Assembly (NCBI GenBank): GCA_963844965.1
Contig: CAWJQC010000004.1
Coordinates: 1 to 64,000, forward strand
Direction: 5' to 3'
Length of the DNA: 64,000 nucleotides
DNA from: an uncultured bacterium
GTDB taxonomy: Bacteria; Patescibacteriota; Minisyncoccia; UBA6257; 2-01-FULL-56-20
Within the stretch, counting starts at the first letter, position 1. Every line of letters begins with the position of its first letter. The translations under genes and the position numbers were made by a program. Positions 6,001 through 64,000 of the stretch are shown in pieces. The notes below the pieces were generated by a model. That model saw only the letters and a program-made list of their open reading frames with translations, searched no databases and had not been told where the DNA came from.

Positions 6001-6213
6001 GGGCGGAGCGGCACGGGCATGGGACACACCACACGCAACATGTAGCATGCAACATGTAACACCAGATAAAAAGAGGAAGGCAAAAAAGGCAGCAGCAAAA
6101 AATAACAAGAAATATGGGTGATACCGCCGGCTATTTTGAAGTTGAGAGGGAGTCATTTTGCCATATACCGCAAAACCAGCGGGACGAACAACCGCTTGTT
6201 CTAATTTTAACAC
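1..6213 (-). CDS. Giant secreted or cell-surface protein (about 2000 aa if contiguous) with N-terminal signal/TM, Ig/fibronectin-like beta domains, a Gly-rich segment and many Kelch-like beta-propeller repeats (motif AVAYNGYIYTxGG); broken into five or more frames (ORFs 4918..6213, 4086..5465, 2615..4561, 1851..2600, 488..1747, unlisted repeats in 1..487); runs off the left edge
   Basis: Consecutive minus-strand ORFs whose real parts abut; frame switches near 5230, 4330, 2670, 1800, 1350 and 480; repeats YNGYIYTIGG/SAVAYNGY in every piece; at 2670 one repeat unit is 1 nt shorter than its neighbours. Confidence 0.6.
2450..3250 (-). repeat. About 160-bp tandem coding repeats (5 units) encoding Kelch-like blades inside the giant surface-protein gene
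   Basis: Near-identical DNA units ...gtatagatgtatccgttataggcgac... recurring every ~160 bp. Confidence 0.8.
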
Positions 6214-12486: not shown

Positions 12487-14040
12487 TTAAGCTCCGCGTC
12501 CGGCATTTTCCCTAACTCCTTGATCCTTTTCTTCCAGCTTCTCTTTTATGTTTCGCTTCGGGTCGTCCAGAACTTCTTCAAGTAAAACCGACAAGATGAA
12601 CCCCACTCGCGGGCCGGGCGGAATGTCCAAAATCTTCATCACGTCGTCGCCTTTAACTTTGAGCATCTTCGGCGAGATCGGGTCGTGCTTCACTTTTTCT
12701 ATCATGAACAAAAGATGGCGCAGCTTATATGGGAAAGCTTTCGGGACGCCGGAACCGATGCGGTCGGCCTCGCGCACTTTGAGCAAGTCGGGAACGTTCT
12801 CCGGGCCGACGCGCGCCAAAAACCTCCGTACGCCTGCTTCCGTCACTTCTCCCACGTTGTAGTAGAAAAGATGGTAGCGCACGAGGTGCACGACTTTTTC
12901 CGCGAAATCCTTTGAGAAACGCAGGCGGTCCAGAGCTTTCGCCGCCATTTTCGCGCCGATATATTCATGCTGATAAAAAGTTGAGTCGGGCCCCTCGCCT
13001 CTTTTTGACTTGGGCTTGCCGAGGTCGTGCAAAAGCGAAGCCAGCCGCACTTCAAGCGAATAATTTTGCTTTACGGCGTAATCAAGCGCGCGGATGTTGT
13101 GCTCAAAAACCGAATAGATGTGATGCTTGTTCTGGCCGACGCCGAGCCCCTCCCGCAGTTCCGGCAGGACATACTGGAGCAAATTCAATTCTTCCAAAAG
13201 CAGAATTCCCTGCGCGGCGCGCGGCGCCATTATTATCTTCTCAAACTCGTCGCGGATCCGCTCTTTGGCGACGGCGTCCAGCAGCGGGCTCAGTTTTTCT
13301 ATCGCGCGGCGCGTTCCCAAATCGATCTGCCAGCCAGAGGCTGGTCCGCCTCCGGCGGAAAAATCAACCCCTCGACTTTGCTCGGGGTTGGCTCGTTCAT
13401 CGAACGAGCCAAGTTCCACGGCGAACCGCACGGCGCGCATGAGACGGAGCGCGTCTTCGTTGAATCGCTCTTCCGGCAGGCCCACGGTGCGGATAATTTT
13501 ATCTTTCAAATCTTTCCGGCCGTCGTACGGATCAATGATTCCCCCAGCTGTCCACCTGACAAGACCCATTGCGATCGCGTTTATCGTAAAATCGCGCCGC
13601 GACAGGTCTTCGTCAATCGTTTTCGCGAAGGTGATGTAATCGGGATGCCGCTTGTCGGTATATTTCCCCTCTTCCCGGAAGGTCGTCACCTCTACCACTC
13701 TTGTGGTCGCAGATACTCGCGGACTTAACGCCGAATCACGCTGAAAACTTTCTGCGTTATTCTGCGTACTGTCTGCGTCCTTCCGCGGTGCGAGTTTAAC
13801 GAGCACAGTGCCGAAATCGTTCTCGTAAACCGTTGACGGATTTTCCGGCGTGCCGCCGTGGAAATTCAGAAACAATTCCTGCACTTTATCGGGCGTCGCG
13901 TTAGTCGCCACATCCCAATCTTTCGGTTCCCGCCCGAGCAAAAGGTCACGCACGCAGCCGCCGACAAGATAGGCCTCGTAACCCTTTTCGCCAAGCAACG
14001 CGCCGATTCTCTTTTACTTCTCCGGGAATGTCGTGTTTCG
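12487..14040 (-). CDS. cca: CCA-adding tRNA nucleotidyltransferase with C-terminal HD domain; N-terminus disrupted by a 1-nt indel in an AAAA run near 13995
   Basis: GYEAYLVGGCVRDLLLGREPKDWDVAT; upstream frame MERKTKHDIPGEVK continues the canonical N-terminus; carries an in-frame palindromic insertion (FSAGGGPASGWQ) at 13331-13368. Confidence 0.85.
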
Positions 14041-17181: not shown

Positions 17182-19416
17182 CTACTTCTCCAATTTCAGC
17201 GATAAAATTTTGGACGTCCCGTCCTCATTCAATGTCACACCATAGAGTATGTCCGCGACTTCCATCGTGGCGCGGTTGTGCGTCACGATGACGAACTGCG
17301 TGCGTTTGGCAAACTCCTTGAGCATTTCGGCGAACCGCCTCGCGTTCCGTTCGTCAAGCGCGGCGTCAATCTCATCCAAAACCAGGAACGGCGGCGGGCT
17401 CACGGAGATCAAGGCAAAGAGCGCGGCGATTCCCACCAAACTTCTCTCGCCGCCGGAGAGCATCTCCAGGGAATTCACCTTCTTTCTCGGCAGGCGCAAT
17501 TCAATCTCCACGCCGCCTTCTTCCTCCGGCTCTTCTTCCGCTCCTCCTGCGGTTTTGTTCTCGTCGGGAACTTCCTGCGCCTCTTCATCCGTCCCCTCTT
17601 GACTCGTGACGCTTGACGCCTGACGCTTCTCTATCTTCAACTTCGCGTGCCCGCCGCCGAACATCACTTCAAAAAACTTGCCGAACTCCTCGTTTATACG
17701 GACGAGCGCTCCGCCAAATTCTTCCTTTATCTTTTCGCTTAGGTCCTTGATTAATTTCCTCAAATCAACGACCGCTTCCTCCAAATCCGCGGATTCTTTT
17801 TTCAGGAATTCGTACCGGGTTTCCGTATCGTGGGCTTCCCTCATCAGCGCTTCGTCTATTTCACCGATGCTCGCCAGGTCGCCACGTAATTTGAAAATTC
17901 TGCGCTCAATCTCTGGTAAATCTGTCTGAGCAACTATTTCTCCGCCAGAGGCGGATCCGCCTTCGGCGGAAAATTCGCGCGAATTACGCCCGGCTTGCGT
18001 TATCTGCCTCTCCAACTCCTCGCGCCTCAGCTCCAGACGTTCCTTTTCAAACAGAATTTCGCGATTTCGCGCCTCCCACTTCTCTATCTTATCCTTTACG
18101 GCCTCCACTCCCGAAACCGCCGTTTTAAAGGCGTGATAAAATTCCTCCTGATTTTTCTCCAACGCTTTCTCCTTATTTTTGAGATCAATCAATTCTTTCT
18201 CAAGCGCTTCCAGGTCGCGGTTAACTTTTTCAAATTGCGATTCTAAAGCGGGATTCGGCTCGGGCTTCGCCTTTGCCGCGCCGCTTTCTTTTATCTTTCC
18301 GCCTAAAATCTCTTCAATTTCCTCTATTGCGCTCCGTATCGCTTCCTGCATCTCAATCATGTCGCCGCGGAGGCCGTTCTCAAGCGTGCTCTTTATCCTT
18401 TTCACGAGTTCAAGTAATTTCGCGGAACTTGCGGCCTGCCCCGAATCGCCGCGGGGAGCGGCCGCCTGCGACATTTCTATCTGCGCCTCGATCCGTCCGA
18501 GTTCCTTCTGCAGCTGGCCCTTTTTGCCGAGCAGCTCCTGCGTCTGCTCTTTTATCTTTTCAATATCCCTTCTTCCTTCGGGCTGGCTCGCTTCCACTTT
18601 CGCCTGTTCCGCCTCCGCGGCTTTTTTCTCTCTTTCAAGAACCGCGAGCTCGCCGCGGTTCGCACCCGACTTTTTCTCCACATCGGCAAGACCCGTTCTG
18701 ATATCTTTAAGCTGGCTGCCGAAAAATTGATTCTCCAGATTTAGCAATTCTTCCGCGTACTCGCCTCGTTTTTCCCAGCGCGAGGTCTGGCGTTTCAACG
18801 ACCGGAGATGCGGCAGAATTTCCTCAACCAACGCTTTAACTTTATCCAAATTTATCTGGCTGTTTTTGAGCCGCCGCTCGGCGTCCGTTTTTTTAAGCTG
18901 ATATTCCCGAAGCCCGAGCACCTCTTCTATCATTTCCCGCCTCTCTTTCGGCGAAACGCGGATAAAAACGTCGCTGTTGCCTTGCGTCACGACAACAAGC
19001 CCGCGCGAGCCGAGCCGCGCTTTGGCGAAGAAATCAACGAGGTCGCGGAGTAGAATTTCCGACTTGTTCAAAAAGTAGCGGCTCGTGCCGTCGCGCCGGA
19101 TTTCGCGCATGACGGAAACCTCGGCAAAATCCACCGGGAAAAAATTATTGGCATTCTCAAAGTGCAAACTCGCCTGCGCCTGTCCCAGGCGCGGGCGCTT
19201 CGCCGTGCCCGCGAAAATCAAGTCGTCAATTCTGCCGCCGCGCAAACTTTTTGCGTCGCGCTCGCCGAGTAACCAGCGAATGGCGTCAACGACATTGGAC
19301 TTGCCGGAACCATTCGGCCCGACTATCGCCGTAATCCCTCCCGGAAACTCCAAAACCGTCTTCCCGGCGAAGGACTTGAAACCGTTTAATTCTAAGCGTT
19401 TGAGAAAGTGGGGCAT
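17182..19416 (-). CDS. smc: Chromosome segregation protein SMC (short form, 744 aa)
   Basis: Walker A GPNGSGKSN, coiled coils, signature LSGGERSLVGIAALFAL, Walker B VLDEIDAALDE; in-frame palindromic insertion FSAEGGSASGGE at 17942-17973. Confidence 0.85.
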   Translation of the reverse strand: MPHFLKRLELNGFKSFAGKTVLEFPGGITAIVGPNGSGKSNVVDAIRWLLGERDAKSLRGGRIDDLIFAGTAKRPRLGQAQASLHFENANNFFPVDFAEVSVMREIRRDGTSRYFLNKSEILLRDLVDFFAKARLGSRGLVVVTQGNSDVFIRVSPKERREMIEEVLGLREYQLKKTDAERRLKNSQINLDKVKALVEEILPHLRSLKRQTSRWEKRGEYAEELLNLENQFFGSQLKDIRTGLADVEKKSGANRGELAVLEREKKAAEAEQAKVEASQPEGRRDIEKIKEQTQELLGKKGQLQKELGRIEAQIEMSQAAAPRGDSGQAASSAKLLELVKRIKSTLENGLRGDMIEMQEAIRSAIEEIEEILGGKIKESGAAKAKPEPNPALESQFEKVNRDLEALEKELIDLKNKEKALEKNQEEFYHAFKTAVSGVEAVKDKIEKWEARNREILFEKERLELRREELERQITQAGRNSREFSAEGGSASGGEIVAQTDLPEIERRIFKLRGDLASIGEIDEALMREAHDTETRYEFLKKESADLEEAVVDLRKLIKDLSEKIKEEFGGALVRINEEFGKFFEVMFGGGHAKLKIEKRQASSVTSQEGTDEEAQEVPDENKTAGGAEEEPEEEGGVEIELRLPRKKVNSLEMLSGGERSLVGIAALFALISVSPPPFLVLDEIDAALDERNARRFAEMLKEFAKRTQFVIVTHNRATMEVADILYGVTLNEDGTSKILSLKLEK

Positions 19417-19418
19417 TC

Positions 19419-20108
19419 TTATTTATATCTTTTCAGCGCTTCTTTCGCCGCCTCCAACTCCCCTTCCTGTTTTGAGGCGCCGACGCCTTCGGCGATGAAT
19501 TCATCGCCGAAAAAGACGCCGATTCTGAAAATCCGCTTGTGCGCCGGGCCGGACTCGTCCAGAACCTTATATGTCGGCGTCACCTTGAGTTTTTCCTGCA
19601 CAATTTCCTGAAGTTCGCTCTTTGAATCCTTATAGCTCTTCGTTTTCATAATCGTGCCGAGGTTTGTCATCACGAATTTGCCGACGAAATTGCGGACGAC
19701 CTCCGTTCCTTGGTCAAGATAAATCGCGCCGATCACGGCCTCAATGGCGTTCGCGAGAATTACCTCGCGCGCCTTGCCCGTATCTTTTTTCTCGCCCCGA
19801 GAAAGCAAAATGAAATCGTCCAAGTCGATTCCCTCGGCGACTTTTGCCAGCGTCTGGTAATTCACGAGCGCCGCGCGCAAAACTGTCATCTGACCCTCCG
19901 GATAATTTGGGAACCTACTAAAAAGCTCCTCGGAAACTATAAGTTCCAGAACAGCGTCGCCCAAAAACTCCAGCCGCTCGTTGTGCGGCAGGCGCCAGTT
20001 CGGAAATTCGTTCAGATAGGAACGATGCGTCAGCGCCTCCGTTGGTAAATCCTTGTTTTTAAATTGTATTCCGATCTTTTGCTCAAATTTATCTAATTTC
20101 GGCGGCAT
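19419..20108 (-). CDS. rnc: Ribonuclease III
   Basis: ERLEFLGDAVLELIVSEELF RNase III signature plus C-terminal dsRBD. Confidence 0.9.
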   Translation of the reverse strand: MPPKLDKFEQKIGIQFKNKDLPTEALTHRSYLNEFPNWRLPHNERLEFLGDAVLELIVSEELFSRFPNYPEGQMTVLRAALVNYQTLAKVAEGIDLDDFILLSRGEKKDTGKAREVILANAIEAVIGAIYLDQGTEVVRNFVGKFVMTNLGTIMKTKSYKDSKSELQEIVQEKLKVTPTYKVLDESGPAHKRIFRIGVFFGDEFIAEGVGASKQEGELEAAKEALKRYK

Positions 20109-20203
20109 TCACATGCGCAAATTTCTAATTTCTAATATCTAATTTCTAAACCGCGAACGGTATCCGAAATTGGAAATTAGGAATCAGGAATTTACAAGAT
20201 TTT

Positions 20204-31762: not shown

Positions 31763-32340
31763 TTGCGTGGGCAGTCGTGAATTTTACGCGGAAATGAACT
31801 TCCGCGCCGATCTGCGTTATGTCTGCGCTTGTCTGCGGTTGAACTTCGCCCGATATCTGAAAAAGAGCTTTTTAGTTGTCCCAACCTATCATGAAACACG
31901 CAACCTGAAACATGGAACATTACAAAATGTTTCATGCTTCATGTTTTATACTTCGTGCTTCACGTCGACTAACTATTTGTTAATAGTTTAATTGATCCAC
32001 GGGCAGCTTCCGCTACTCGTGCCTTGTTACGACTTATCCCATGTCACCGAGCTTAAGCTAAATCGCCTGAGGCGATCTTCACCTACTCCCGGCTCCCTTG
32101 GATTGACGGGCAGTGAGTACAGGACTCGAGAACGTATTCACCGCAACATAGCTGATTTGCGATTACTAGCGATTCCAGCTTCATGAGGGCAGGTTGCAGC
32201 CCTCAATCCGAACTGAGACCGGGTTTGATGGGATTAGCTCCGCCTTGCGACTTCGCAACCCATTGTCCCGGCCATTGTAGCACGAGTGTAGCCCAGGGCA
32301 TCAGAGGGCCATGCTGATTTGACGTCATCCCCTCCTTCCT

Positions 32341-32439
32341 CCCCGCTCAGAAACCACGAGACATGAGACACACGTCACGACTCACAAATTTATTGTGCAT
32401 CGTGCTACGTGTATCGTGCATCATGAACTCTGAGCGGGG
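32341..32439 (-). other. 16S intervening sequence 1: about 100-nt hairpin insertion closed by an 11-bp stem (ccccgctcaga/tctgagcgggg) in the helix 39/40 region
   Basis: Sequence between the conserved 1100 and 1190 blocks replaced by a self-complementary insert. Confidence 0.7.
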
Positions 32440-32511
32440 CAGTTTCGCGTGACACTTGTAACACACGATAGGGGTTGCGCTCGTTACCCCACTTAAGGGA
32501 ACACTTCAAAG

Positions 32512-32542
<31 letters not shown>

Positions 32543-32669
32543 ACGTGACGTCCTTGAGAGAGGGCCCGCCTTTCGGCAAGCTTTCGTCACGAATTTCAAG
32601 CCCTGGTAAGGTTCCTCGCTTACTGTCGAATTAAACCTCATGCTCCACCGCTTGTGCGAGTCCCCGTCT

Positions 32670-32701
<32 letters not shown>

Positions 32702-33161
32702 TCCCAGGCGGCCGACTTAACGCGTTAGCTCCGCCACTCCGAGGGTCGATACTCGAAACAGCAAGTCGGCATCGTTTAGGGCGTGGACTACAAGGGTATC
32801 TAATCCTTTTTGCTCCCCACGCTTTCGCGTCTCAGAGTCAGGAAGGTCCCAGTGCCATGCCTTCGCCTTTGGTGTTCCGCACGATATCAACGGATTTCAC
32901 CCCTACACCGTGCGTTCCAGGCACCTCTAACCTCCTCTAGTTTCGCCGTATCTCCTGCACTTCCACCGTTAGGCGGTGGGATTTAACAGAAGACGCACGA
33001 AACCTCCTACACGCTCTTTACGCCCAATAAATCCGGATAACGCTCGAGGTCTACGTATTACCGCGGGTGCTGGCACGTAGTTACCAACCTCTTTCCGTAT
33101 GGTACGGTCACCCAGCACTTTTGGAACGAACTTTTCTAATTTGCTCAAATTTTTGGAGGTA

Positions 33162-33190
33162 TTGACAACAGCAATCACTTCTGCTATAAT
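33162..33190 (+). promoter_or_regulatory. Perfect consensus sigma70 promoter (TTGACA-17-TATAAT) inside IVS-2, oriented antisense to the rRNA
   Basis: ttgacaacagcaatcacttctgctataat. Confidence 0.6.
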
Positions 33191-33269
33191 GCCCATAGCA
33201 CATTGGGAGACCAACGTGCCGCACGTCGGGCCTCAGCCCTTGTGCAATTCCCAAAAGGAGAATTGATTT

Positions 33270-33461
33270 ATGCGTGCCAAATTCCCGTCACAAGTCACGG
33301 ATCGAATACTGGAAGCAGCCAAGAAAGAGTACTCCTTCCAGATCAATCATGCGGAATTAGGGCGGCGGCTGTTTACGCGCAAGCACTGTGGCACGAGAAT
33401 GGTTCAGGTAAAAGTCTTTCTGCAAGGAAGACAACAACCTGCCATACTCGGAAAACAATAA
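33270..33461 (+). CDS. 63-aa ORF inside 16S IVS-2, antisense to the rRNA (MRAKFPSQVTDRILEAAKKEYSFQINHAELGRRLFTRKHCGTRMVQVKVFLQGRQQPAILGKQ); has its own promoter, SD and terminator
   Basis: SD aaaaggagaa 6 nt before ATG; intrinsic terminator ctgccaccagaagctttccggtggcag plus TTTTTT at 33543-33575. Confidence 0.45.
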   Translation: MRAKFPSQVTDRILEAAKKEYSFQINHAELGRRLFTRKHCGTRMVQVKVFLQGRQQPAILGKQ

Positions 33462-33542
33462 CCACAGATGCACGGACGCCGCAGTATGCCCCGTTTGTTT
33501 GCTGGCATATGTCATGACTAACGACTAGCTGCCACCTTTCTA

Positions 33543-33575
33543 CTGCCACCAGAAGCTTTCCGGTGGCAGTTTTTT
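33543..33575 (+). terminator. Rho-independent terminator of the IVS-2 mini-gene
   Basis: 11-bp GC-rich stem followed by a T6 run. Confidence 0.6.
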
Positions 33576-34434
33576 AAATCCAAAAATTTGAGCAAATTAG
33601 TTTTCCCGCCAAAAGTGCTGGGTTCTTCCCATACTACCGCAGTTTACAACCCGAAGGCCTTCTTCCTGCACGCGGCGTCGCTCGATCAGGCTTTCGCCCA
33701 TTGTCGAATATTCTCGGCTACTGCCACCCGTAGGTGTACGAACCGTTTCTCAGTTTCGTCGTTGGGGGTCAGGCTCTCACCTCCCCTACCGGTCATAGCC
33801 TTGGTAGGCCGTTACCCTGCCAACTAGCTGATCGGACCTAGGCCGCTCTTGGAGCGTCTTGCGACTTTGGATGCGAATGGCTTTCGCCCCCGCATCATCA
33901 TCAGGAATTACCCCGCCTTTCGGCGAGCTGTGCCCGTCTCCAAGGTACGTTACCAAGGTGTTACTAACTCGTTCGCCGCTCACTATTTTCCTTGCGGAAA
34001 ATAGTTCGCTCAACTTGCATGCCTTATCCACGCCGCCAGCGTTCATCCTGGACCAGGATCAAATCCTCAGTAAAAATCGCGCATTTATTCAATACGCGAG
34101 ATTGTGCGCCATGCATGACGCCCAAACTCGCGCATCTCACTCGTGCGTGAGTTCATACCGCGATTGATTTATTGATCTCGGTTTATTTCAATTCCAAACC
34201 GAAAAATGAATCTTATTGGGACAACTAAAAAACTCTTTTTTATTTACTTTTCTCATATTAATTTTTCAATCTGCAGTCGGCGCAGTCCTTTACCCCGCAC
34301 ATTACCTTCGGTAATAACGGGGCGAGCAACAAAACATCCCCCCTACACATTCTAAACCTCAGAAGAATGTGTAGGGCGGATGTCTTTAGACACACCATAA
34401 TATTGAGATATCAAACCTATCCGTTTTCCATATT

Positions 34435-40794: not shown

Positions 40795-42252
40795 CTATGC
40801 CTTTGACTTTTTAATTCCCAATCCTAACTCATTCAATTGTTTTTTGTCCACATCGCTCGGCGAACCCATCATCGGGTCATAGCCCTCGCCAGTTTTCGGG
40901 AATGCAATAACTTCGCGGATGTTCGGCTCGTTTTGCAAAACAGTAACCAGGCGGTCAAGTCCCCAGGCGATGCCGCCATGCGGCGGCGCGCCGAAACTCA
41001 GCGCCTCAAGCATGTGCCCGAACTTCGCCTGTATCTCCGTGTCACTGTAGCCCATAATACTAAACACTGCCTTGAGTGCTTCGGGCCTGTGATTGCGCAT
41101 ACTGCCGCCGCCGATCTCCAGTCCGTTCAAAACAACATCGTATTGGCTTGTCAAAATTCCGGCAATATTTTTCTGCGCCAGCAAATCATCCATAAACTCC
41201 GGCTTCGGCGCGGAAAATGGGTTGTGCGTAAAAGTCCATTTGGTTTTCTCTCCGCCAGAGGCGGATCCCTGCCCGCCGGCAGGCGCGGCGCCTTCGGCGG
41301 AAAAAAACGGAAAATCAATTATCCAGCAAAAAGCCAAAAGGTTCGGGTCGTTCTTATCCTTCCGTAAATCCGGCCGGTCGGTTTTATATTTTTCAGCAAC
41401 ATCTTTATAGCTCAGACGCGGGAAAGGAATTTCCTGAATTTTTTTGTCCGGATAGAGGGTCTCCACTATCTTTATCAGAAGTTCTTCGTTTATCGCCATC
41501 ACATCCTCGCGTTCCACGAAGCTCATCTCCAGATCAAGTTGCGTGAATTCCGGCTGCCTGTCTCCTCTTGTGTCCTCGTCGCGGAAACAACGGGCAATCT
41601 GGAAATATTTTTCCAATCCGCCGACCATCAAAAGCTGTTTATACTGCTGCGGCGACTGCGGCAAAGCGTAAAACTGTCCTTTGAAAATGCGTGACGGCAC
41701 AAGATAATCGCGTGCGCCTTCCGGCGTGGATTTTGACAGCACCGGCGTTTCTATTTCCAAAAATCCTTTCCCATCCAGAAAATCTCGTATTAACTTGATT
41801 ATTCTGTGCCGCGAAATCAAGTTTTTCTGCAAGCGCGCGCGCCGCAAATCCAAATATCTGTATTTCAGGCGGGTTTCCTCGTTGATCTCGTAACCGTCGG
41901 CGTCAACGGAAATCGGCGTGGCTTCCGAGCGATTCAGGATTTCCAGTTCGGTCGCGCTGACTTCATAGTGACCGGTCGGCAACTTGTCGTTCACCATCGC
42001 CGGCGGCCGCTTCTTGACCTCGCCTTTCACTCGCACGACATATTCCAGCCGCAGGTCGCCGGCGCCTGATAATGATGGCCCTCCGCCAGAGGCGGATCCG
42101 CCTTCGGCGGAAAAAACGACCTGCGCTAAACCGCTCCGGTCGCGGAGGTCAATAAAAACCAATTTCCCGTGGTCGCGCCGCGCGTGAACCCAACCGCAAA
42201 GCTCAACTTCTTTGCCTTCGTTTTTTATGATTTCTGATACAGATACCCGCAT
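40795..42252 (-). CDS. aspS: Aspartate--tRNA ligase, archaeal/eukaryal-type short form (no GAD domain)
   Basis: Class II aaRS motifs, N-terminal OB fold; 485 aa; two in-frame palindromic insertions (42083-42114 and 41262-41304). Confidence 0.85.
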   Translation of the reverse strand: MRVSVSEIIKNEGKEVELCGWVHARRDHGKLVFIDLRDRSGLAQVVFSAEGGSASGGGPSLSGAGDLRLEYVVRVKGEVKKRPPAMVNDKLPTGHYEVSATELEILNRSEATPISVDADGYEINEETRLKYRYLDLRRARLQKNLISRHRIIKLIRDFLDGKGFLEIETPVLSKSTPEGARDYLVPSRIFKGQFYALPQSPQQYKQLLMVGGLEKYFQIARCFRDEDTRGDRQPEFTQLDLEMSFVEREDVMAINEELLIKIVETLYPDKKIQEIPFPRLSYKDVAEKYKTDRPDLRKDKNDPNLLAFCWIIDFPFFSAEGAAPAGGQGSASGGEKTKWTFTHNPFSAPKPEFMDDLLAQKNIAGILTSQYDVVLNGLEIGGGSMRNHRPEALKAVFSIMGYSDTEIQAKFGHMLEALSFGAPPHGGIAWGLDRLVTVLQNEPNIREVIAFPKTGEGYDPMMGSPSDVDKKQLNELGLGIKKSKA

Positions 42253-49234: not shown

Positions 49235-49332
49235 TTGCGCTCCGACCATGGTCGGAGCGCAATTTTCAAATCACAATTTCCAATTTTCAAACCATTACTG
49301 AATTACCACTAATTACAACTGAATTACATCTA

Positions 49333-49515
49333 TTACTTCCCTCCTATCTTAACCTCCTTGTGTGCCGTATGTTTTCGGCACCACTTGCAGAATTTTTTAT
49401 ATTCCAGTTTCCGCTCAACTTTCTTCTTGTTCTTGGTCGTATAATAATTCCGCCGTTTGCAGACGGAACAACGCAGGGCTATTAAATTCTCGGAATGCTT
49501 GGATTTAGCTGCCAT
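49333..49515 (-). CDS. rpmG: 50S ribosomal protein L33
   Basis: MAAKSKHSENLIALRCSVCKRRNYYTTKNKKKVERKLEYKKFCKWCRKHTAHKE. Confidence 0.8.
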   Translation of the reverse strand: MAAKSKHSENLIALRCSVCKRRNYYTTKNKKKVERKLEYKKFCKWCRKHTAHKEVKIGGK

Positions 49516-49635
49516 GGAATCAGAAAGTAGAAGGTAGAAAATAGAATTTAGAACATAGAACTGAGGGCGCGGAGAGAACAATCCTCAAAATTCCACACAG
49601 GAAATCTTAGCAGAAAACCGGTTTTCGCGCAAATC

Positions 49636-56117: not shown

Positions 56118-56206
56118 TTTTAGAAAATAGTAAGTAGAAATTAGAAAATAGAATTTTGTCGGGATTTTCGGCGAAGTTCCGATTTCTATTTTCTATTTAC
56201 TATTTT
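56118..56206. terminator. AT-rich long inverted repeat (tagaaaatagtaagtagaaattagaaaatagaattt / tttctattttctatttactattttctactttcta) between convergent dnaE and the nucleotidyltransferase gene; likely bidirectional terminator
   Basis: Member of a TAGAAA(A)TAGAA family also at 20110-20190, 49500-49560 and 59750-59840. Confidence 0.5.
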
Positions 56207-56614
56207 CTACTTTCTATCTACGATATTGCTTTTATATCTATGCGGCTCGTGCGCCCTCAAAACAACCATCTTCGGCCGCCAACGAAATTCCTTGCGGTGA
56301 TTTTTCAGGTCCTCTTTGAGCGCCACCTGGTCGTAACCCAAAGCGATAACGTCGGGCTTGTGCTTTTTCACGACCTCGTAAACGCCGAGTTCAGCGTCGC
56401 CGAGCGCGACCTCGTCAACAAGAGGTTCTTTTCGCAGGTCGTCAATTCTCCGCGCGAGATTTCTCTGCGGCAGACGGCCCTTCAAGTACTCAGCCGTATG
56501 GTCCTGCGCGACTGCGACGAGCAAATAATGGCCGTATTCCCTGGCTTGTTTAAAAAATTGACGGTGACCTTCATGGATGCCGTCAAAAACGCCGAAGACC
56601 AGAACTTTTTTCAT
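56207..56614 (-). CDS. Cytidylyltransferase-family nucleotidyltransferase (HxGH; RibL/TagD-like)
   Basis: VLVFGVFDGIHEGH motif; 135 aa. Confidence 0.65.
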   Translation of the reverse strand: MKKVLVFGVFDGIHEGHRQFFKQAREYGHYLLVAVAQDHTAEYLKGRLPQRNLARRIDDLRKEPLVDEVALGDAELGVYEVVKKHKPDVIALGYDQVALKEDLKNHRKEFRWRPKMVVLRAHEPHRYKSNIVDRK

Positions 56615-56676: not shown

Positions 56677-58125
56677 TCATTTTTTCGGACGCATCAGCGG
56701 GAAAATCACGGTCTCGCGCACGGGCTTGTCCATCAAAATCGCGAATAGGCGCTCTGACATGCCGAAACCGGCGGCGGGCGGCATACCGTACTCCATAGCT
56801 TCCAAGTAATCCTCGTCCAGCCGCTGGGCTTCATTGTCCCCTTCCGCACGCAACTTCATCTGCTCCTCAAACCGCGCGCGCTGGTCAAGGGGGTCATTCA
56901 GTTCCGAAAAACCATTTCCCACTTCCGTGCCACAGGCCACTACCTGAAACCGTTCCGCGACTTTCGGATTTTTCCGACTGCGTTTGGCCAAGGGTACTAA
57001 TTCAACCGGTGGGTCAACCAAAAAGCACGGCTCAATCAGTTTGGGTCGGATGGCTTTCTTATATATCAGATCAATAAGGCGTCCTCTGCCGAGATTTTCC
57101 TCCGGCTGCAGGCCGAAAGAACGTGCCGTGATAAAAAGCTCTTTGCGCGTGGCAACCGTCGGGTCAAGCCCGGCAGCTTTCTTAAATTCCTCCACGTAAT
57201 TCACTTTCGGCCACCTCTTCCCCCAGTTTATTTTTTTGCCGCCGAAGGTCACGGTAAAACCGCCGCAGGTTTTTTTGACAACGGCTTTGTACATTTTTTC
57301 CACGGACGCCATCATGTCGTTGTAATCGGCGTAAGCCCAGTAGTATTCCATGTGCGTGTAGTCCTGCAGATGTTCCTTGTCTATGCCTTCGTTGCGGAAC
57401 ACGCGGCCAATCTCAAAGACCCTTTCAAAACCGGCGACGAGAAGTTTTTTCAAAGACAGTTCCATGGATATGCGCAGGTAGAAGTCAACATCCAGCGCAT
57501 TGTGATGCGTTTTGAACGGCTCGGCGTCCGCGCCTCCGGGAACGCTCTCCAGAACGGGCGTTTCCACTTCCAAAAATCCTTCGCCCTTAAGATAATTGCG
57601 GATAGTTTCCCAAAAAACGGCTTTCTTCTCAAAAAGCACCTTTGCTTCCGGATTCATAAGCAAATCCAGGTATCGTTTCCGCAGGCGCGTTTCAATGTCT
57701 TCCAGCCCGTACCACTCGCTCGGCAACGGACGCAGGGATTTCGCCAGTATTTTAAGCTCTTTAACTTCCAGACTTTCCTCTCCTTTTTTCGTCTTGAACA
57801 ACGAGCCACCCGCGTAAATAAAATCGCCGATGTCCAAAACGGATTTCCAAAATTCAAAATCCGGCAAATTGTCTTTCTTCAAAACCAGCTGCAGCTTGCC
57901 CGTGGCGTCTGCCAGATCAAGAAACACGATATTCCCCTGGTCGCGCGAGCCCAAAATGCGCCCGACCAAAGAAATCTTCTTCCGGGATTTCGCCAGCGCG
58001 TTGAATCTTTTCCGCGCCTCGGCAATCGCAAGCGTCCGCTTCGCCTCCGGCGGATACGGGTCGAGCTTCACTTTCTTTATTTCTTCCAGCTTCTTCAACC
58101 GCTCTTTGATAAGATCGTCAAGCAT
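56677..58125 (-). CDS. lysS: Lysine--tRNA ligase (class II)
   Basis: 482 aa; N-terminal OB fold and class II motifs 1-3. Confidence 0.9.
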   Translation of the reverse strand: MLDDLIKERLKKLEEIKKVKLDPYPPEAKRTLAIAEARKRFNALAKSRKKISLVGRILGSRDQGNIVFLDLADATGKLQLVLKKDNLPDFEFWKSVLDIGDFIYAGGSLFKTKKGEESLEVKELKILAKSLRPLPSEWYGLEDIETRLRKRYLDLLMNPEAKVLFEKKAVFWETIRNYLKGEGFLEVETPVLESVPGGADAEPFKTHHNALDVDFYLRISMELSLKKLLVAGFERVFEIGRVFRNEGIDKEHLQDYTHMEYYWAYADYNDMMASVEKMYKAVVKKTCGGFTVTFGGKKINWGKRWPKVNYVEEFKKAAGLDPTVATRKELFITARSFGLQPEENLGRGRLIDLIYKKAIRPKLIEPCFLVDPPVELVPLAKRSRKNPKVAERFQVVACGTEVGNGFSELNDPLDQRARFEEQMKLRAEGDNEAQRLDEDYLEAMEYGMPPAAGFGMSERLFAILMDKPVRETVIFPLMRPKK

Positions 58126-58356
58126 TAGATTAATTATGCCCCATTATCAATCAAAATTCAAAATCGGGATAACATAAAAAGCTGTTTTTGCCGACAGGCT
58201 AAAACACCTTATATCCAAAAGAATTGAGTGGCGTTTCTTGGGAAACCCGCAGCCGATTTAGCTAGGTCTTTGCCGAAAGGCAAAGTAAATCGGCGAGGAC
58301 AAGTCGAATTTGCCGCCGGAGCAAATTCGACGGGTTCCCAAGAAATCTCGCCGCTC
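58126..58356 (-). promoter_or_regulatory. Structured greA-lysS intergenic leader: about 125-nt multi-stem element (20-bp outer stem ggcgagatttcttgggaacccg/cgggtttcccaagaaacgcc enclosing two hairpins, one with a GAAA tetraloop), then a terminator-like hairpin plus U run about 60 nt before the lysS ATG
   Basis: Begins right after the greA stop; no T-box consensus found; candidate attenuator/riboswitch, or a palindromic repeat element. Confidence 0.4.
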
Positions 58357-58823
58357 GATTCCCTCACTCTATCTTAGTAATCTGGTATACAATCTGTCCC
58401 GCCGGCGCGTTAACGGTCACGCTGTCGCCGACTTTCCTGCCGATGAACGCTCTGCCGAGCGGCGATTCGTCGGAAATCTTTCCTTCCTCCGGCTTCGCTT
58501 CATAAGAACCGACTATCGTGTAACGCGCAATCTGATTCTCCTTTCTTGGCGAAAACCGTGGAGCAGACGCCAACTTTCTCCGCTCCTTCTGTCTTCTTTA
58601 TAATCACCGCTTTTTTCAGAAGTTCCTCCAGATCAAAAATCCGCGTCTCAACGAGCGCCTGCTCTTCCCTCGCCTCCGCGTACTCGGAATTTTCCGAAAG
58701 GTCGCCGTATTCCTTCGCGTGACGCAAACGCTCCGCGATTTCCGCGCGTTTCGTATTTTTCAGAACGTCAAGTTCCTGCTTCAATTCCTCAAGACGTTCT
58801 TTTGTTAAGTAATATCTGTCCAC
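58357..58823 (-). CDS. greA: Transcription elongation factor GreA; frame-shifted near 58540
   Basis: N-terminal coiled coil ...GDLSENSEYAEAREEQ... (ORF 58500..58823); C-terminal FKBP-like ...SPLGRAFIGRKVGDSVTVNAPAG (ORF 58364..58573). Confidence 0.8.
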
Positions 58824-59749: not shown

Positions 59750-59884
59750 TGAAATAGAAAATAGAATTTAGAAAGTAGAAAGTAGTAGGTAGTAGGAAGA
59801 AAAAACTGAAAATTTCTAAATTCTAATTTCTGATTTCTAAACAATTAAAATTATAACACAAAAGAAACAGCTGAAATTCCACGC

Positions 59885-60646: not shown

Positions 60647-61401
60647 TACGAAAACAAAACCCGATAAAAGTCCACTGAGCCGGCGGAGGCCTTCCTCACG
60701 GTGGTTTTTCTGCCGATGCCGCGCGTTCGCAGCATAATCGTACCAATTATCTTGTTGAGCACTTTATATGGCGCGGCTCTGGCGTTAATAACTTCCAGGT
60801 TGTAACCCAATTTATCCAAAATATTGAAAACCGGCTCGGTGCGATTCTTATACTCCTTAAGACGTACCTTGATCACCTCCGGTTTATCCAATGAACGTCT
60901 GTAAAAATTTCCGCCGCACACGGGGCAATACCTCGGCTTAACCTTGGGGTAATATTTCGCAAGCAGCGTGTAGCCGCAGGATTTACACACCATGCGGGCG
61001 CCGTTTCTCTTGATTGAATATTCTGCCGGCAGCCGCAACTCAAAAATAAATATATTCTCCCGGCCATAAAGCCGATCCAAAATCGGCATAAGCCGCTCGC
61101 CTTCGTAAACGGTGCGCGGCGAGCCGCTGAAAGCGACGCCGAATCCCGCCTGCGCGATCTTCGTGACCGCGTTCGCCACCTCGCGCGAAACAAAGCTCGG
61201 TGTCATCAAAATCCCGCCATCAAAAAGTTTCCGCTCGCGCTTTACAATTTTTTCTTTCTGCCGCGCCTGGTCGTGCACAACCGATTCCAAAAATTTTCCC
61301 GTGTCAAAATGAATCAGGTTCAGTTTTTGCGCCAATAAATTCGCCTGTGTTCCCTTACCCGAACCCGGCGGCCCGTAAATTATAATGGCGATTTTTTTCA
61401 T
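60646..61401 (-). CDS. adk: Adenylate kinase (long form with zinc-ribbon LID)
   Basis: IIIYGPPGSGKGTQ P-loop, CKSCG...CPVCGG LID; the adk-map gene order is typical of the end of the ribosomal protein operon. Confidence 0.9.
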   Translation of the reverse strand: MKKIAIIIYGPPGSGKGTQANLLAQKLNLIHFDTGKFLESVVHDQARQKEKIVKRERKLFDGGILMTPSFVSREVANAVTKIAQAGFGVAFSGSPRTVYEGERLMPILDRLYGRENIFIFELRLPAEYSIKRNGARMVCKSCGYTLLAKYYPKVKPRYCPVCGGNFYRRSLDKPEVIKVRLKEYKNRTEPVFNILDKLGYNLEVINARAAPYKVLNKIIGTIMLRTRGIGRKTTVRKASAGSVDFYRVLFS

Positions 61402-61526
61402 CCCGTTAGAGACAGGGAACGCTTCGCCAGTTAGACGAACCGCTATCTGTCATTATTATTTTTGATAAATGAAGTTGGTTTGTGTAAATTAAGCGTCCCC
61501 GTAGCGAAGCGGTCTCTAACGGGATT
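61400..61526. repeat. Inverted-repeat element of the ATCCCGTTAGAGAC family (copy C), about 127 bp, abutting the adk ATG
   Basis: atcccgttagagac at 61400-61413 and gtctctaacgggat at 61513-61526, with extended stem gcttcgc/gcgaagc. Confidence 0.7.
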
Positions 61527-61648
61527 CATGCACTTGAAACAATTCTAACACAAGATGCCCCTGCAATTTAAGGGGGATTTATGCACAGCAAATCGGCACA
61601 CGCCATGTCGCGACAAACAAAAACCCCGATTCTCATCGGGGATGCAAA

Positions 61649-62314
61649 CTATTCCGGCTCAATACCAAGAACATCGCAAACGGCGCAGAAAAGGCGCTCT
61701 TTCTTCTTTTTGAAACCTGTAGAATTATCAATTACCGTCAAATTTCTGTGTGGTCGCCAACCGGCGAGAATGCGCCGATCCAAAGCGCGGGCTTTTTTAG
61801 GGGTCTCGTATCTCACTTCGTTGCTTTTATTCCCATAATGCTTCTCTGCGCCCAACGCGGCCGTCACAAGGTGTATCACGGCGTCGTATCTCGTATAGAT
61901 GTCGTGAAGCAACATTTCCTTGTCTTTCAAAATCTTTTCCAATGAAACTAGACCGTCGTATCCAACCCGATCGACGATTCCACGATCGCACAAGATTACT
62001 ATATTTTCACGGGGCAAGGTTTTTGCCAAAACCTCAGTCCCGTCTTCAAGGGCTAGTTGCAAATCAACAATATATCTCCCCATAAGGAAAGAGGTGTGTG
62101 AATCTTCCGCAACAATTCTCTTTATGTCGTATGCGCCCGTGCCTATACCGAAAAGGATGGTTGCAGCTTCCGGAACGAGCAATGGTTGCCAACCAGCCGC
62201 CTTCAACTTTCTAACGACGTACTTTATTCCCAGCGTTTTTCCCGAACAAGGCCCACCGGTAATGGCAATCTTTATAATCCTTCCCATTTGCGACCTCCCG
62301 GAAGATAATTTCAA
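61649..62314 (-). CDS. P-loop NTPase (AAA_28 / NadR-kinase-like)
   Basis: IAITGGPCSGKTL Walker A. Confidence 0.5.
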   Translation of the reverse strand: MKLSSGRSQMGRIIKIAITGGPCSGKTLGIKYVVRKLKAAGWQPLLVPEAATILFGIGTGAYDIKRIVAEDSHTSFLMGRYIVDLQLALEDGTEVLAKTLPRENIVILCDRGIVDRVGYDGLVSLEKILKDKEMLLHDIYTRYDAVIHLVTAALGAEKHYGNKSNEVRYETPKKARALDRRILAGWRPHRNLTVIDNSTGFKKKKERLFCAVCDVLGIEPE

Positions 62315-62442
62315 TTTCGCTGCCTAAAATATATCAGAACCTTAAAATTTGTGCAACAAAAAGTTTTGTATGGTAGCGGTCAATGGACAACAACGTAGGA
62401 ATGATTTAGAATTTAGTCAGCATCACAAAATACGGGAGGTGG

Positions 62443-62801
62443 CAATGGCTACTAAGAAAAAATTCAGATTGACGAAGAAAGAGCGCACAAAACGGAATCC
62501 GAAAGGAAAAATTTCCCGCCGAATTGCCGAATTGCGCCGGAAATTTAAAAAATTTTCAAAGACGCCTACAGACAACGTGTCTATTCGTTCCTTGGTTCGC
62601 TCTAATATTAAGCGCAAGATTAAGATGCTGAACGACCACCTGAAGGGCAAGATTGATATTTTTGCCGAGATTGCGAACGAAAAACCCAAGACCGAAGTTC
62701 TGCGTTCGGCAGAGCAGCAATTATCTTTAGCTCAAATCAGGGTAGACACGCTCAAGAAAGAATTGCAGAGAATTGTCTGGCTCAAAGATTTGGTCGGTTA
62801 G
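62443..62801 (+). CDS. Hypothetical basic helical protein
   Basis: RBS gggaggtggcaATG; K/R-rich, about 119 aa. Confidence 0.4.
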
Positions 62802-62987
62802 ATGTGGAATTTACCAGACAAAATAACGGCGCCCCCTCGGCGCCGGATTTTTTTCGGCAGTTGCACATGCTTAGTTATCTAAATTTTCCCAATGCGGAGG
62901 CCATTGCCTCTCAAAAAAGAAAGGGCCGGATTATCCATCCGGACCCTGCGGCCTGCCGTGGCCGCTTCAAACCGGTCTCGCCCCGCC

Positions 62988-63422
62988 TCATTTGCCAACT
63001 TTCGGAGTGACGTCAGCCGCCGGAACGGCAAACTTGATCTCTTCTATGTCGCTGCCAAAGTCAGTACCAAGGTTATAGACAAACCTACCAACACATACCT
63101 GCTCTCCGACTACCATCTTCAACCCTGGTTTAACAGGAACAGAACGGATCCTGTCACGCTGACTCTTGATTGCGACCCTGTCGAGGCCGAGGACCCCATC
63201 AGGTATCACCTTCACGACGGTATAACGATAATCGTCAATGCCCTTGACATAGATGCGCAGGGACTCCCGACTGACGAGATCAATGTCTTTTTGTTCGCGC
63301 AACGCTTCTTGCTTGACGACATCGCGGGCGTGATCGTAGGCGGGTTGAGTTGCCCTCCAAACGATTCCCGCCAGAAGCAATACCGCAGAAATTAATAAAG
63401 CGACCGTAAAGTTCTTCCCCAT
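62988..63422 (-). CDS. Hypothetical membrane-anchored protein (N-terminal TM, beta-rich periplasmic domain)
   Basis: 144-aa ORF, TM ALLISAVLLLAGIV. Confidence 0.4.
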   Translation of the reverse strand: MGKNFTVALLISAVLLLAGIVWRATQPAYDHARDVVKQEALREQKDIDLVSRESLRIYVKGIDDYRYTVVKVIPDGVLGLDRVAIKSQRDRIRSVPVKPGLKMVVGEQVCVGRFVYNLGTDFGSDIEEIKFAVPAADVTPKVGK

Positions 63423-64000
63423 GTTTCTTCCCTCCGATTTGAGATACCCAACCAGAAAAAGCTGGGCTATAAGACCGAAAACTAGATTGTGCAGAACTAC
63501 TTATATGTTAGCATATAGTCAATAATAAGTCAAGTGCTTAAAAACGCTTGATTTTGTTGGCTAAAACGTACTTCGCCCTGCTATCAAGAAAGCGCACGGA
63601 GATTCTTCGCATGGCTCAGAATGACACCGGCTCTTTATAAAAAATCCGTTTTGCGCCAGCAAAACTCCTTATTTCCTACAGCATTGAGGGATGTTTCTTT
63701 GGAACCAGAAGCGGAGGCCGCGCAAAAATGAATGAGTGCGGCGAAGATTTTTAAAAGCCGATTTTGCCGTGAGGCAAAATCACCTTAAGCACTCGCAGAA
63801 GTTTTTGTTTCGCGAGGGTGTATCGCAGGAGCGAAGGCGACGAGATGCAGCGCGTTTTCAGCAGAAAACGACGCGACCATCGCGAAATAAAAACTGGAGC
63901 TACTCGATGCCCTCGTATTCGCGAACCGTCAGCTGCGAATCCACCTGCCTCATTGTCTCCAAGCGCTACCGCGACAACGATCAGAAGCGCCGTGCCCGAA

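Follow-up and report, generated by a model that had tools for sequence, protein, structure and literature searches.

Patescibacteria (the candidate phyla radiation) carry very compact genomes, and to our knowledge almost nothing is known on RNA regulation in these bacteria. The locus studied here raises the question of why a strongly folded spacer of 238–241 nt separates greA from lysS, and which of the two genes such a spacer would serve. An earlier note on the 64,000-nt stretch of DNA that we analyzed (hereafter the window) had proposed an attenuator or riboswitch for lysS, with a palindromic repeat as a fallback. The spacer is read here on the minus strand, which is that of the genes, and the fold, promoter and terminator calls given below are sequence predictions on this one 64-kb window.

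The greA-lysS spacer is predicted to fold with an energy of -96.4 kcal/mol, versus -63.5 ± 5.2 kcal/mol for shuffled sequences (z = -6.3), which confirms the claim of a structured element right after the greA stop codon; the opposite strand folds comparably (z = -8.75). The outer stem, P1, which had been described as 20 bp, is an interrupted helix of approximately 26–29 bp that begins within the greA stop codon, pairs 58365-58332 with 58248-58217 through three small interruptions and a continuous core of ~15 bp, and thus spans 58365-58217, enclosing two hairpins, H1 and H2. The GAAA tetraloop that had been assigned to one of these hairpins exists on the plus strand only, the loop on the gene strand being UUUC. 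A hairpin and a U run follow 3' of P1, as the earlier note had also seen, with the U run ending ~52 nt ahead of the lysS ATG. The whole element, which we call copy A (58365-58173, minus strand), lies among the following features, in which relatives are referred to by L numbers:

58823-58364, minus strand: greA
58364-58366, minus strand: greA stop codon UGA, whose last two bases are the start of the P1 5' arm of copy A
58332-58365, minus strand: P1 5' arm of copy A, GAGGGAAUCGAGCGGCGAGAUUUCUUGGGAACCC
58303-58331, minus strand: H1 of copy A, 12 bp, with the loop motif GCUCCGGCGGC common to L090 and L094
58252-58294, minus strand: H2 of copy A, composite, with a UUUC loop on the minus strand and the conserved 3' bulge GACCUAGCU
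58217-58248, minus strand: P1 3' arm of copy A, GGGUUUCCCAAGAAACGCCACUCAAUUCUUUU, which closely resembles the 3' arms of copy B (see below) and of the element after secY in L096
58216-58207, minus strand: tail of copy A, GGAUAUAAGG
58206-58183, minus strand: imperfect terminator-like hairpin of copy A, followed by the U run CUUUUUAUG within 58182-58173
58161-58133, minus strand: promoter-like TTGAAT-17-CATAAT, ending 7 nt before the lysS ATG (58125)
58125-56677, minus strand: lysS

Single-base bulges in the stems may be assembly errors, since both greA and secY show apparent frameshifts in the window. greA is split into two overlapping frames at 58536-58576 (minus strand): in a tblastn search with GreA of L082, residues 1-96 match frame -3 and residues 83-152 match frame -1, an apparent frameshift in a normally intact gene of 152 amino acids. 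The secY C-terminus changes frame at about 63959-63961 (minus strand), between ...VAL and ETMRQ...; the sequence there reads GCGCTTGGAGACAATG, with a GG run at the switch, and a single extra base would explain it. The occurrence of two frameshifts in essential genes within 6 kb suggests indel errors in the assembly.

A structured region and a terminator upstream of an aminoacyl-tRNA synthetase gene, with conserved nucleotides in the junction and loops, would fit a ligand- or tRNA-sensing leader of lysS, be it a riboswitch, a T-box or an L-box. Such a leader is extremely improbable here, and the idea is already largely refuted. The earlier note had seen no T-box consensus, which is upheld, and had proposed a search of Rfam for T-box, L-box or other families. 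cmscan of 57900-58600 on both strands at E ≤ 10 returned four chance-level hits only, with no match to T-box (RF00230), lysine riboswitch (L-box, RF00168) or any other family, and the fold is a three-way junction and not the five-helix junction of the lysine riboswitch. In a scan of the whole window at the Rfam gathering threshold, only rRNA, RNase P and tRNAs were recovered, and nothing at the elements.

The 16S rRNA match in the window (31985-34074, minus strand) spans 2090 nt versus 1533 positions in the model, and the gene thus carries insertion(s) of ~550 nt. Insertions in 16S rRNA are familiar in candidate phyla radiation bacteria.

The genomic context also argues against a lysS leader. 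By its LysS homologues, the window belongs to Patescibacteria/Parcubacteria and is close to Liptonbacteria and Paceibacterota. greA-lysS synteny is widespread, and the spacer is mostly tiny: in L082/L083, whose LysS is 81% identical to that of the window, it measures 0 nt, the TAA being directly followed by ATG, while it amounts to 7 nt in L090, 24 nt in L098 and about 10–20 nt in the best GTDB relatives. From this comparison of sequences, the long greA-lysS spacer is an insertion relative to close relatives. In L100 (71% LysS identity), the spacer is 70 nt long and consists of a simple terminator and TTGAAT-16-CATAAT, which is homologous to window positions 58161-58133, and we thus consider that the lysS promoter is older than the element. 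On these predictions copy A sits between the greA stop codon and the lysS promoter-like site, that is, in the greA 3' UTR, and transcription of lysS apparently starts anew at its own promoter, giving an mRNA with little or no leader. A promoter-like site downstream of the terminator, homologues that lie upstream of adk or of orphan ORFs instead of lysS, and a P1 of 26–29 bp, which is far too long and stable for a switching helix, all stand against a leader. The lesson is that a hairpin and a terminator upstream of a synthetase gene are not evidence for a T-box or riboswitch; here it is the empty sites in close relatives that decide.

Part of the element had been reported to recur at 63760-63800, and this recurrence is real and larger than noted. 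In nhmmer searches, the greA-lysS spacer aligns with 63640-63715 (E = 3e-5) and with 63751-63790, and the pattern ATTGAGNGNNGTTTCTTNGGAAMC occurs exactly twice in the window, as compared to 0.02 expected occurrences. The second element, copy B (63637-63911, minus strand), lies directly 3' of the secY stop codon, where the translation at the end of the window reads ...REYEGIE*. It is composed of several sub-elements, which correspond to two architectures, a three-way junction (type I) and a long rod with small internal loops (type II):

63900-63911, minus strand: last four codons of secY and stop, GAG GGC AUC GAG UAG, adjoining copy B
63800-63895, minus strand: complete type I sub-element (covariance model score of 32 bits, E of about 1e-5 to 8e-5), with P1 at 63895-63877 / 63818-63800, H1 at 63875-63850 and the junction UGCAUCUCG at 63849-63841
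63757-63784, minus strand: hairpin GGUGAUUUUGCCUCACGGCAAAAUCGGC, the recurring stretch seen in the earlier note, which resembles H2 of copy A
63667-63743, minus strand: solo type II 3' half (..GCCUCCGCUUCUGGUUCCAAAGAAAC..CUCAAUGC..) with the tail GGAAAUAAGG, the matching 5' arm being missing
63637-63665, minus strand: predicted intrinsic terminator GUUUUGC-UGGC-GCAAAAC followed by GGAUUUUUUAU
63505-63533, minus strand: promoter-like TTGACT-17-TAACAT with an upstream TG, located downstream of the copy B terminator and ahead of a 144-aa orphan ORF

Copies A and B have in common the outer-helix 3' arm, a tail (..AUAAGG.G) and a terminator hairpin; indeed, the tail, terminator-like hairpin and U run of copy A (58173-58216) are homologous to the tail and terminator of copy B. 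The two terminator hairpins differ by compensatory changes and a 3-nt deletion, and only that of copy B, with a predicted 7-bp stem and U6, passes the consensus terminator scan, the hairpin at 58206-58183 with CUUUUUAUG not being flagged. The end of the upstream ORF takes part in the base of P1, with one compensatory change, GCAUCGAG/CUCAAUGC in copy B versus GAAUCGAG/CUCAAUUC in copy A, the corresponding pairing in L096 being GAAUGAGUG/CACUCAUUC. In addition, the 12 nt at the head of copy A (GAGGGAAUCGAG), which overlap the greA stop codon, are identical at 11 of 12 positions to the last four secY codons (E-G-I-E). Copy A most likely derived from a secY-type element that was duplicated locally and came to rest at the greA-lysS junction, on the upstream side of a lysS promoter that was already there. 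A duplication of the whole secY-adk spacer, promoter included, was rejected for its 3' part, given that the lysS promoter region is orthologous to the greA-lysS spacer of L100.

Between secY and adk, the window also holds a 2.2-kb block of lineage-specific orphan ORFs. Three genes lie there, at 61649-63422: one for an AAA_28 ATPase of 221 aa, one lysine-rich ORF of 150 aa on the opposite strand, and the 144-aa ORF, whose N-terminus is hydrophobic. The secY-adk gap is only 40–500 nt in most of the relatives examined (about 760 nt in L096). Relatives' greA-lysS and secY-adk spacers also hold unrelated orphan ORFs, and both spacers therefore look like insertion hot spots. Directly upstream of adk (61398-61527, minus strand) we noted a long-range hairpin in which AUCCCGUUAGAGAC pairs with GUCUCUAACGGGAUG and whose 3' arm contains the adk start codon. 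It is also present in L092 (about 5890-6016), with compensatory changes (GAAGC/GCUUC), and is a candidate translational leader of adk.

Homologous elements were identified in five related metagenomic lineages by nhmmer and direct inspection, at the same two sites, in relatives examined over about 20 kb each. They follow secY in the window, L090/91, L092/93, L094 and L096/97, and greA in the window, L094/95 (289-nt spacer), L096/97 and L099. In all nine members, polarity agrees with that of the flanking genes, and the element starts 0–7 nt past the stop codon, some including the stop codon in the helix. In each of them, a nearly perfect outer helix of 16–29 bp surrounds one to three hairpins, and a short tail and terminator-like hairpins with U tracts usually follow 3' on the gene strand. 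The genes downstream are unrelated (adk, lysS or orphan ORFs). Type I comprises the elements after secY in L090 and L094, that after greA in L094, copy A and the copy B sub-element at 63895-63800, while type II comprises the elements after secY in L092 and L096, that after greA in L099 and the solo 3' half of copy B at 63743-63667. Partial or solo arms and tandem sub-units are found in L094, L096 and copy B, the extra tandem solo 3' arms being those of L094 and L096.

The stems are intact across lineages in which LysS is only 70–76% identical to that of the window. In an alignment of four type I members, 30 of the 48 predicted pairs change on both sides yet stay paired, and 94.9% of the cells can pair, versus 74.6% after shuffling (0 of 500 shuffles reached the observed value) and 37–51% in controls with slid partners; this covariation rests on only four to five sequences, from which the structure itself was derived. 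Unpaired motifs are also conserved, namely the H1 loop GCUCCNGCGG, the junctions UGCAUCUC and UCCGAUAGC, and the H2 bulge GRCCURGCU. A covariance model built from the four type I members scored them at 81–148 bits on the gene strand and 32–34 bits on the reverse strand, and when run over ~760 kb (the window and 89 loci) it yielded just one further match, the copy B sub-element.

Further copies were sought more widely. None were found beyond the two sites in ~0.8 Mb of window and related loci, and nhmmer searches with both copies gave no matches in 80 GTDB loci around lysS. Exact patterns gave no matches in genome contigs, none in viral contigs (two patterns) and four in metagenome contigs, all of them chance matches inside coding sequence, while a type I motif pattern gave five chance matches in viral contigs, none of which was confirmed by the covariance model; these scans of public collections used strict exact patterns that could miss divergent members. 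Exact look-ups with proteins of the window gave no record by which to follow the contig beyond 64000. The family is absent from Rfam 15 and previously undescribed, no description of such an element in Patescibacteria having been found in the literature. The fallback of the earlier note, a repeat family, was essentially right; to it can be added that, as judged from these alignments, the family is essentially a small, low-copy one, restricted to the sites after secY and after greA, whose structure is conserved with covariation across a Parcubacteria (Paceibacterota) clade. For genomes this compact, it is costly to keep an element of 125–200 nt intact directly 3' of the stop codons of two essential genes, as several lineages do. 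This speaks either for a real function in the 3' UTR (in message stability, in processing by RNase III, or in insulating the operon, with a leaderless restart) or for an unusual, site-restricted generation of palindromes.

Other repeats were observed in the window. A 34-nt double-hairpin repeat, CTCCGCCAGAGGCGGATCCGCCTTCGGCGGAAAA, is present at 13329-13362, 17940-17973, 41250-41304 and 42081-42114, inside long minus-strand ORFs; its copies at 17940 and 42081 are identical, and one open frame of it encodes ..FSAEGGSASGG... A/T-rich TAGAAA/TTTCTA-like repeats occur in at least four places (20119-20151, 49260-49569, 56121-56212 and 59755-59842), two of which, according to ORF coordinates, are the spacers between dnaE and a CTP-transferase gene and between a glycosyltransferase gene and Map, where the units read as mutually inverted in repeat listings; they may represent another intergenic element family, terminators or promoter-associated sequence. 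Finally, 2347-3141 holds five tandem copies of a ~160-nt unit, whose identity to the reference copy is 63–81%. Shorter repeats of a related kind occur between 140 and 3224, and the tandem copies may lie inside a large repetitive gene.

Fixed polarity, tight coupling to the stop codon, conserved asymmetric motifs and stems that are intact at 70–76% LysS identity lead us to favor a reading in which copy A belongs to a lineage-restricted family of cis-acting 3'-UTR modules of secY and greA messages, a proposal to which we give about an even chance. The transcript that the element would affect, in cis, is the upstream one, of greA or secY, rather than that of lysS. With the weak A/U-rich terminator, it would define and protect the 3' end of the message, either by blocking 3'-to-5' exonucleases or by offering RNase III a double-stranded site for processing. 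It would also insulate the downstream gene from read-through, transcription of the next gene presumably starting anew at a promoter of its own. As the stop codon is where the helix begins, the element may in addition slow terminating ribosomes, an effect reported for REPs. A 229-aa ORF (19419-20108, minus strand) carries the RNase III signature NERLEFLGDAV, and it is relevant in that the 16–29-bp helices of the elements would be candidate substrates. Points that weigh against a 3'-UTR module are the failure of the copy A terminator in the simple consensus scan, the patchy presence of the element among close relatives, solo arms that resemble a decaying repeat, similarity that crosses sites, strand-symmetric folding and a contradictory G.U asymmetry.

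Most of these same points favor a serious rival, if on balance an unlikely one, namely a DNA-level palindromic repeat devoid of RNA function. The quasi-palindrome would be made, kept perfect and copied between the two nearby sites by replication template switching or illegitimate recombination, or would be a non-autonomous mobile element, and it would be tolerated only for landing just outside coding sequence. The stems contain hardly any pairs other than Watson-Crick ones, and the two strands differ little in how well they fold. In the G.U strand test the two types contradict each other, with 13 G.U pairs on the gene strand versus 2 on the opposite strand in type I, and 3 versus 12 in type II. 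The element is patchily distributed, and the relative whose LysS is 81% identical lacks it after secY as well as after greA; some members consist of solo arms or of partial units in tandem; and similarity crosses sites between genomes, the element after greA in L099 being closest to that after secY in L096, and copy A being closest to copy B and to the element after secY in L096. The 12-nt relic of the secY end in copy A and the insertion of orphan genes into the same spacers point the same way. Template switching is documented to create and maintain perfect hairpins (PMC8794818). What stands against a DNA-level repeat is that only two copies exist in 64 kb and none elsewhere in ~0.8 Mb, always at the same two syntenic sites, that polarity is uniform in all nine members and non-palindromic loop and junction motifs are conserved, and that the stems are intact at a LysS identity at which neutral spacer DNA should no longer align. 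Furthermore, Pfam searches of ten orphan ORFs from the secY-adk and greA-lysS spacers revealed no transposase, recombinase or other mobile-element domain, and no target-site duplication is visible in comparison to the empty site of L082.

The coupling of P1 to the stop codon in all members also bears on a translation-coupled attenuator, in which P1 would be opened at its base by the ribosome that completes greA or secY, and the freed 3' arm GAAACGCC would pair with the terminator 5' half GGUGUUUU, so that read-through into lysS (or adk) would depend on translation of the upstream gene. The tail/terminator 5' half is indeed complementary to part of the 3' arm, as GAAACGCC:GGUGUUUU in copy A and GAAACAUCC:GGAGUUUU in copy B, with one U.G to A-U change, and in L090 the terminator U tract lies only ~28 nt ahead of the adk ATG. 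Such an attenuator is nonetheless very unlikely: the alternative pairing is short (8 bp versus the 26–29 bp of P1) and has no comparable counterpart in L090 or L094, a ribosome at the stop codon should cover only ~15 nt of the 34-nt arm and should be gone before the 3' arm, ~120–150 nt downstream, is transcribed, and the downstream genes have promoter-like sites of their own.

The defined size of the element, with a terminator at its 3' end, raises the possibility of a trans-acting sRNA of ~190 nt that would extend from the 5' end of P1 as far as the terminator and be either derived from the 3' UTR or transcribed as an independent gene, for instance a divergent 6S-like housekeeping RNA. The conserved loop motifs could bind a protein or a target, a weak promoter-like GGGACA-18-TAAGAT is present inside the 3' end of greA, and two paralogues per genome are reminiscent of the 6S-1 and 6S-2 RNAs that Bacillus carries. 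We attribute a very low probability to this proposal, since Rfam searches at E ≤ 5-10, including 6S RNA (RF00013 and relatives) among other families, gave no match in the window or in the elements of L092, L096 and L099, and the consensus folds are three-way junctions or rods with small internal loops, without the large central bubble of 6S RNA. The absence of the element from both sites in the relative with 81% LysS identity argues in the same direction, and GGGACA-18-TAAGAT does not reach the threshold of the promoter scan, while the codons that contain it are different in L082.

Other candidates were rejected. A plus-strand sRNA with the candidate promoter TTGCCG-16-TATATC was discarded because copy B has a spacing that is 3 nt different and because the shared hairpin with its U run reads as a minus-strand terminator. 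Hammerhead and other ribozymes, 6S RNA and retron ncRNA were ruled out by their anatomy and by the lack of Rfam matches, and a coding element by alignment indels that are not multiples of three and stems that change by compensation. An integron attC site was dismissed given that no GTTRRRY/RYYYAAC core motifs are found at the arm ends (both strands of 58170-58370 read directly) and that the upstream genes are housekeeping genes and not cassettes.

A stronger version of the preferred 3'-UTR reading, which we regard as quite unlikely, is that the three-way junction, with its fixed motifs in loops and junctions, represents a new conserved class of structured RNA in Parcubacteria. Its helix would sequester the stop codon of an essential upstream gene. 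By sensing translation termination or by binding a dedicated protein, the element would govern how stable the upstream mRNA is, or how much transcription reads through from secY to adk and from greA to lysS. If true, the element would be a 3'-UTR regulatory device and not a passive repeat.

When compared to known systems, the elements share with the riboswitch, T-box and attenuator leaders of aminoacyl-tRNA synthetase genes a structured region and a terminator upstream of lysS, and differ from them in the absence of a family match, in their lack of a conserved association with lysS, in having the promoter downstream of the terminator and in a closing helix that is too stable. The intercistronic RNase III signals of phage T7 are likewise stable irregular hairpins between cistrons, where the hairpin of the 3' product stabilizes the upstream message. 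Each T7 site, however, is a single hairpin of ~60 nt that contains an internal loop and has no terminator next to it, and RNase III cleavage of the elements described here is a candidate process only. Correia elements of Neisseria, ERIC/IRU, RUP and MITE-like repeats resemble them in measuring 100–200 bp and in carrying long terminal inverted repeats, which form a long stem upon co-transcription. RNase III cleaves Correia elements, some of which contain promoters or terminators, and an RNase III-like ORF is encoded in the present genome as well. In contrast to MITEs, which are multi-copy, inserted in either orientation, and carry conserved terminal-repeat sequences and target-site duplications, the elements have arms that differ by compensatory changes, fixed polarity, a low copy number and sites that are conserved across lineages.

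REP/BIME sequences of enterobacteria are single hairpins of ~35–40 nt, dispersed in hundreds of copies and tied to RAYT transposases, whereas the elements described here are 125–200 nt long, with a 16–29-bp outer helix and inner hairpins, and occur as two copies in 64 kb at fixed syntenic sites, with none elsewhere in ~760 kb of related loci. We thus do not class them with REP/BIME, Correia/ERIC or T7 sites, from which they depart in copy number and dispersal, in the size of the unit, and in lacking conserved terminal repeats and a target-site duplication. Like REPs, they are extragenic palindromes in the 3' UTRs and spacers of co-directional genes, often in partial or tandem clusters. Reportedly (Liang, Rudd and Deutscher 2015), REPs shield the upstream mRNA from 3' exonucleases, and those located within ~15 nt of a stop codon stall ribosomes and lower expression. 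The location of the present elements is REP-like in this respect, as all nine members begin 0–7 nt past the secY or greA stop codon.
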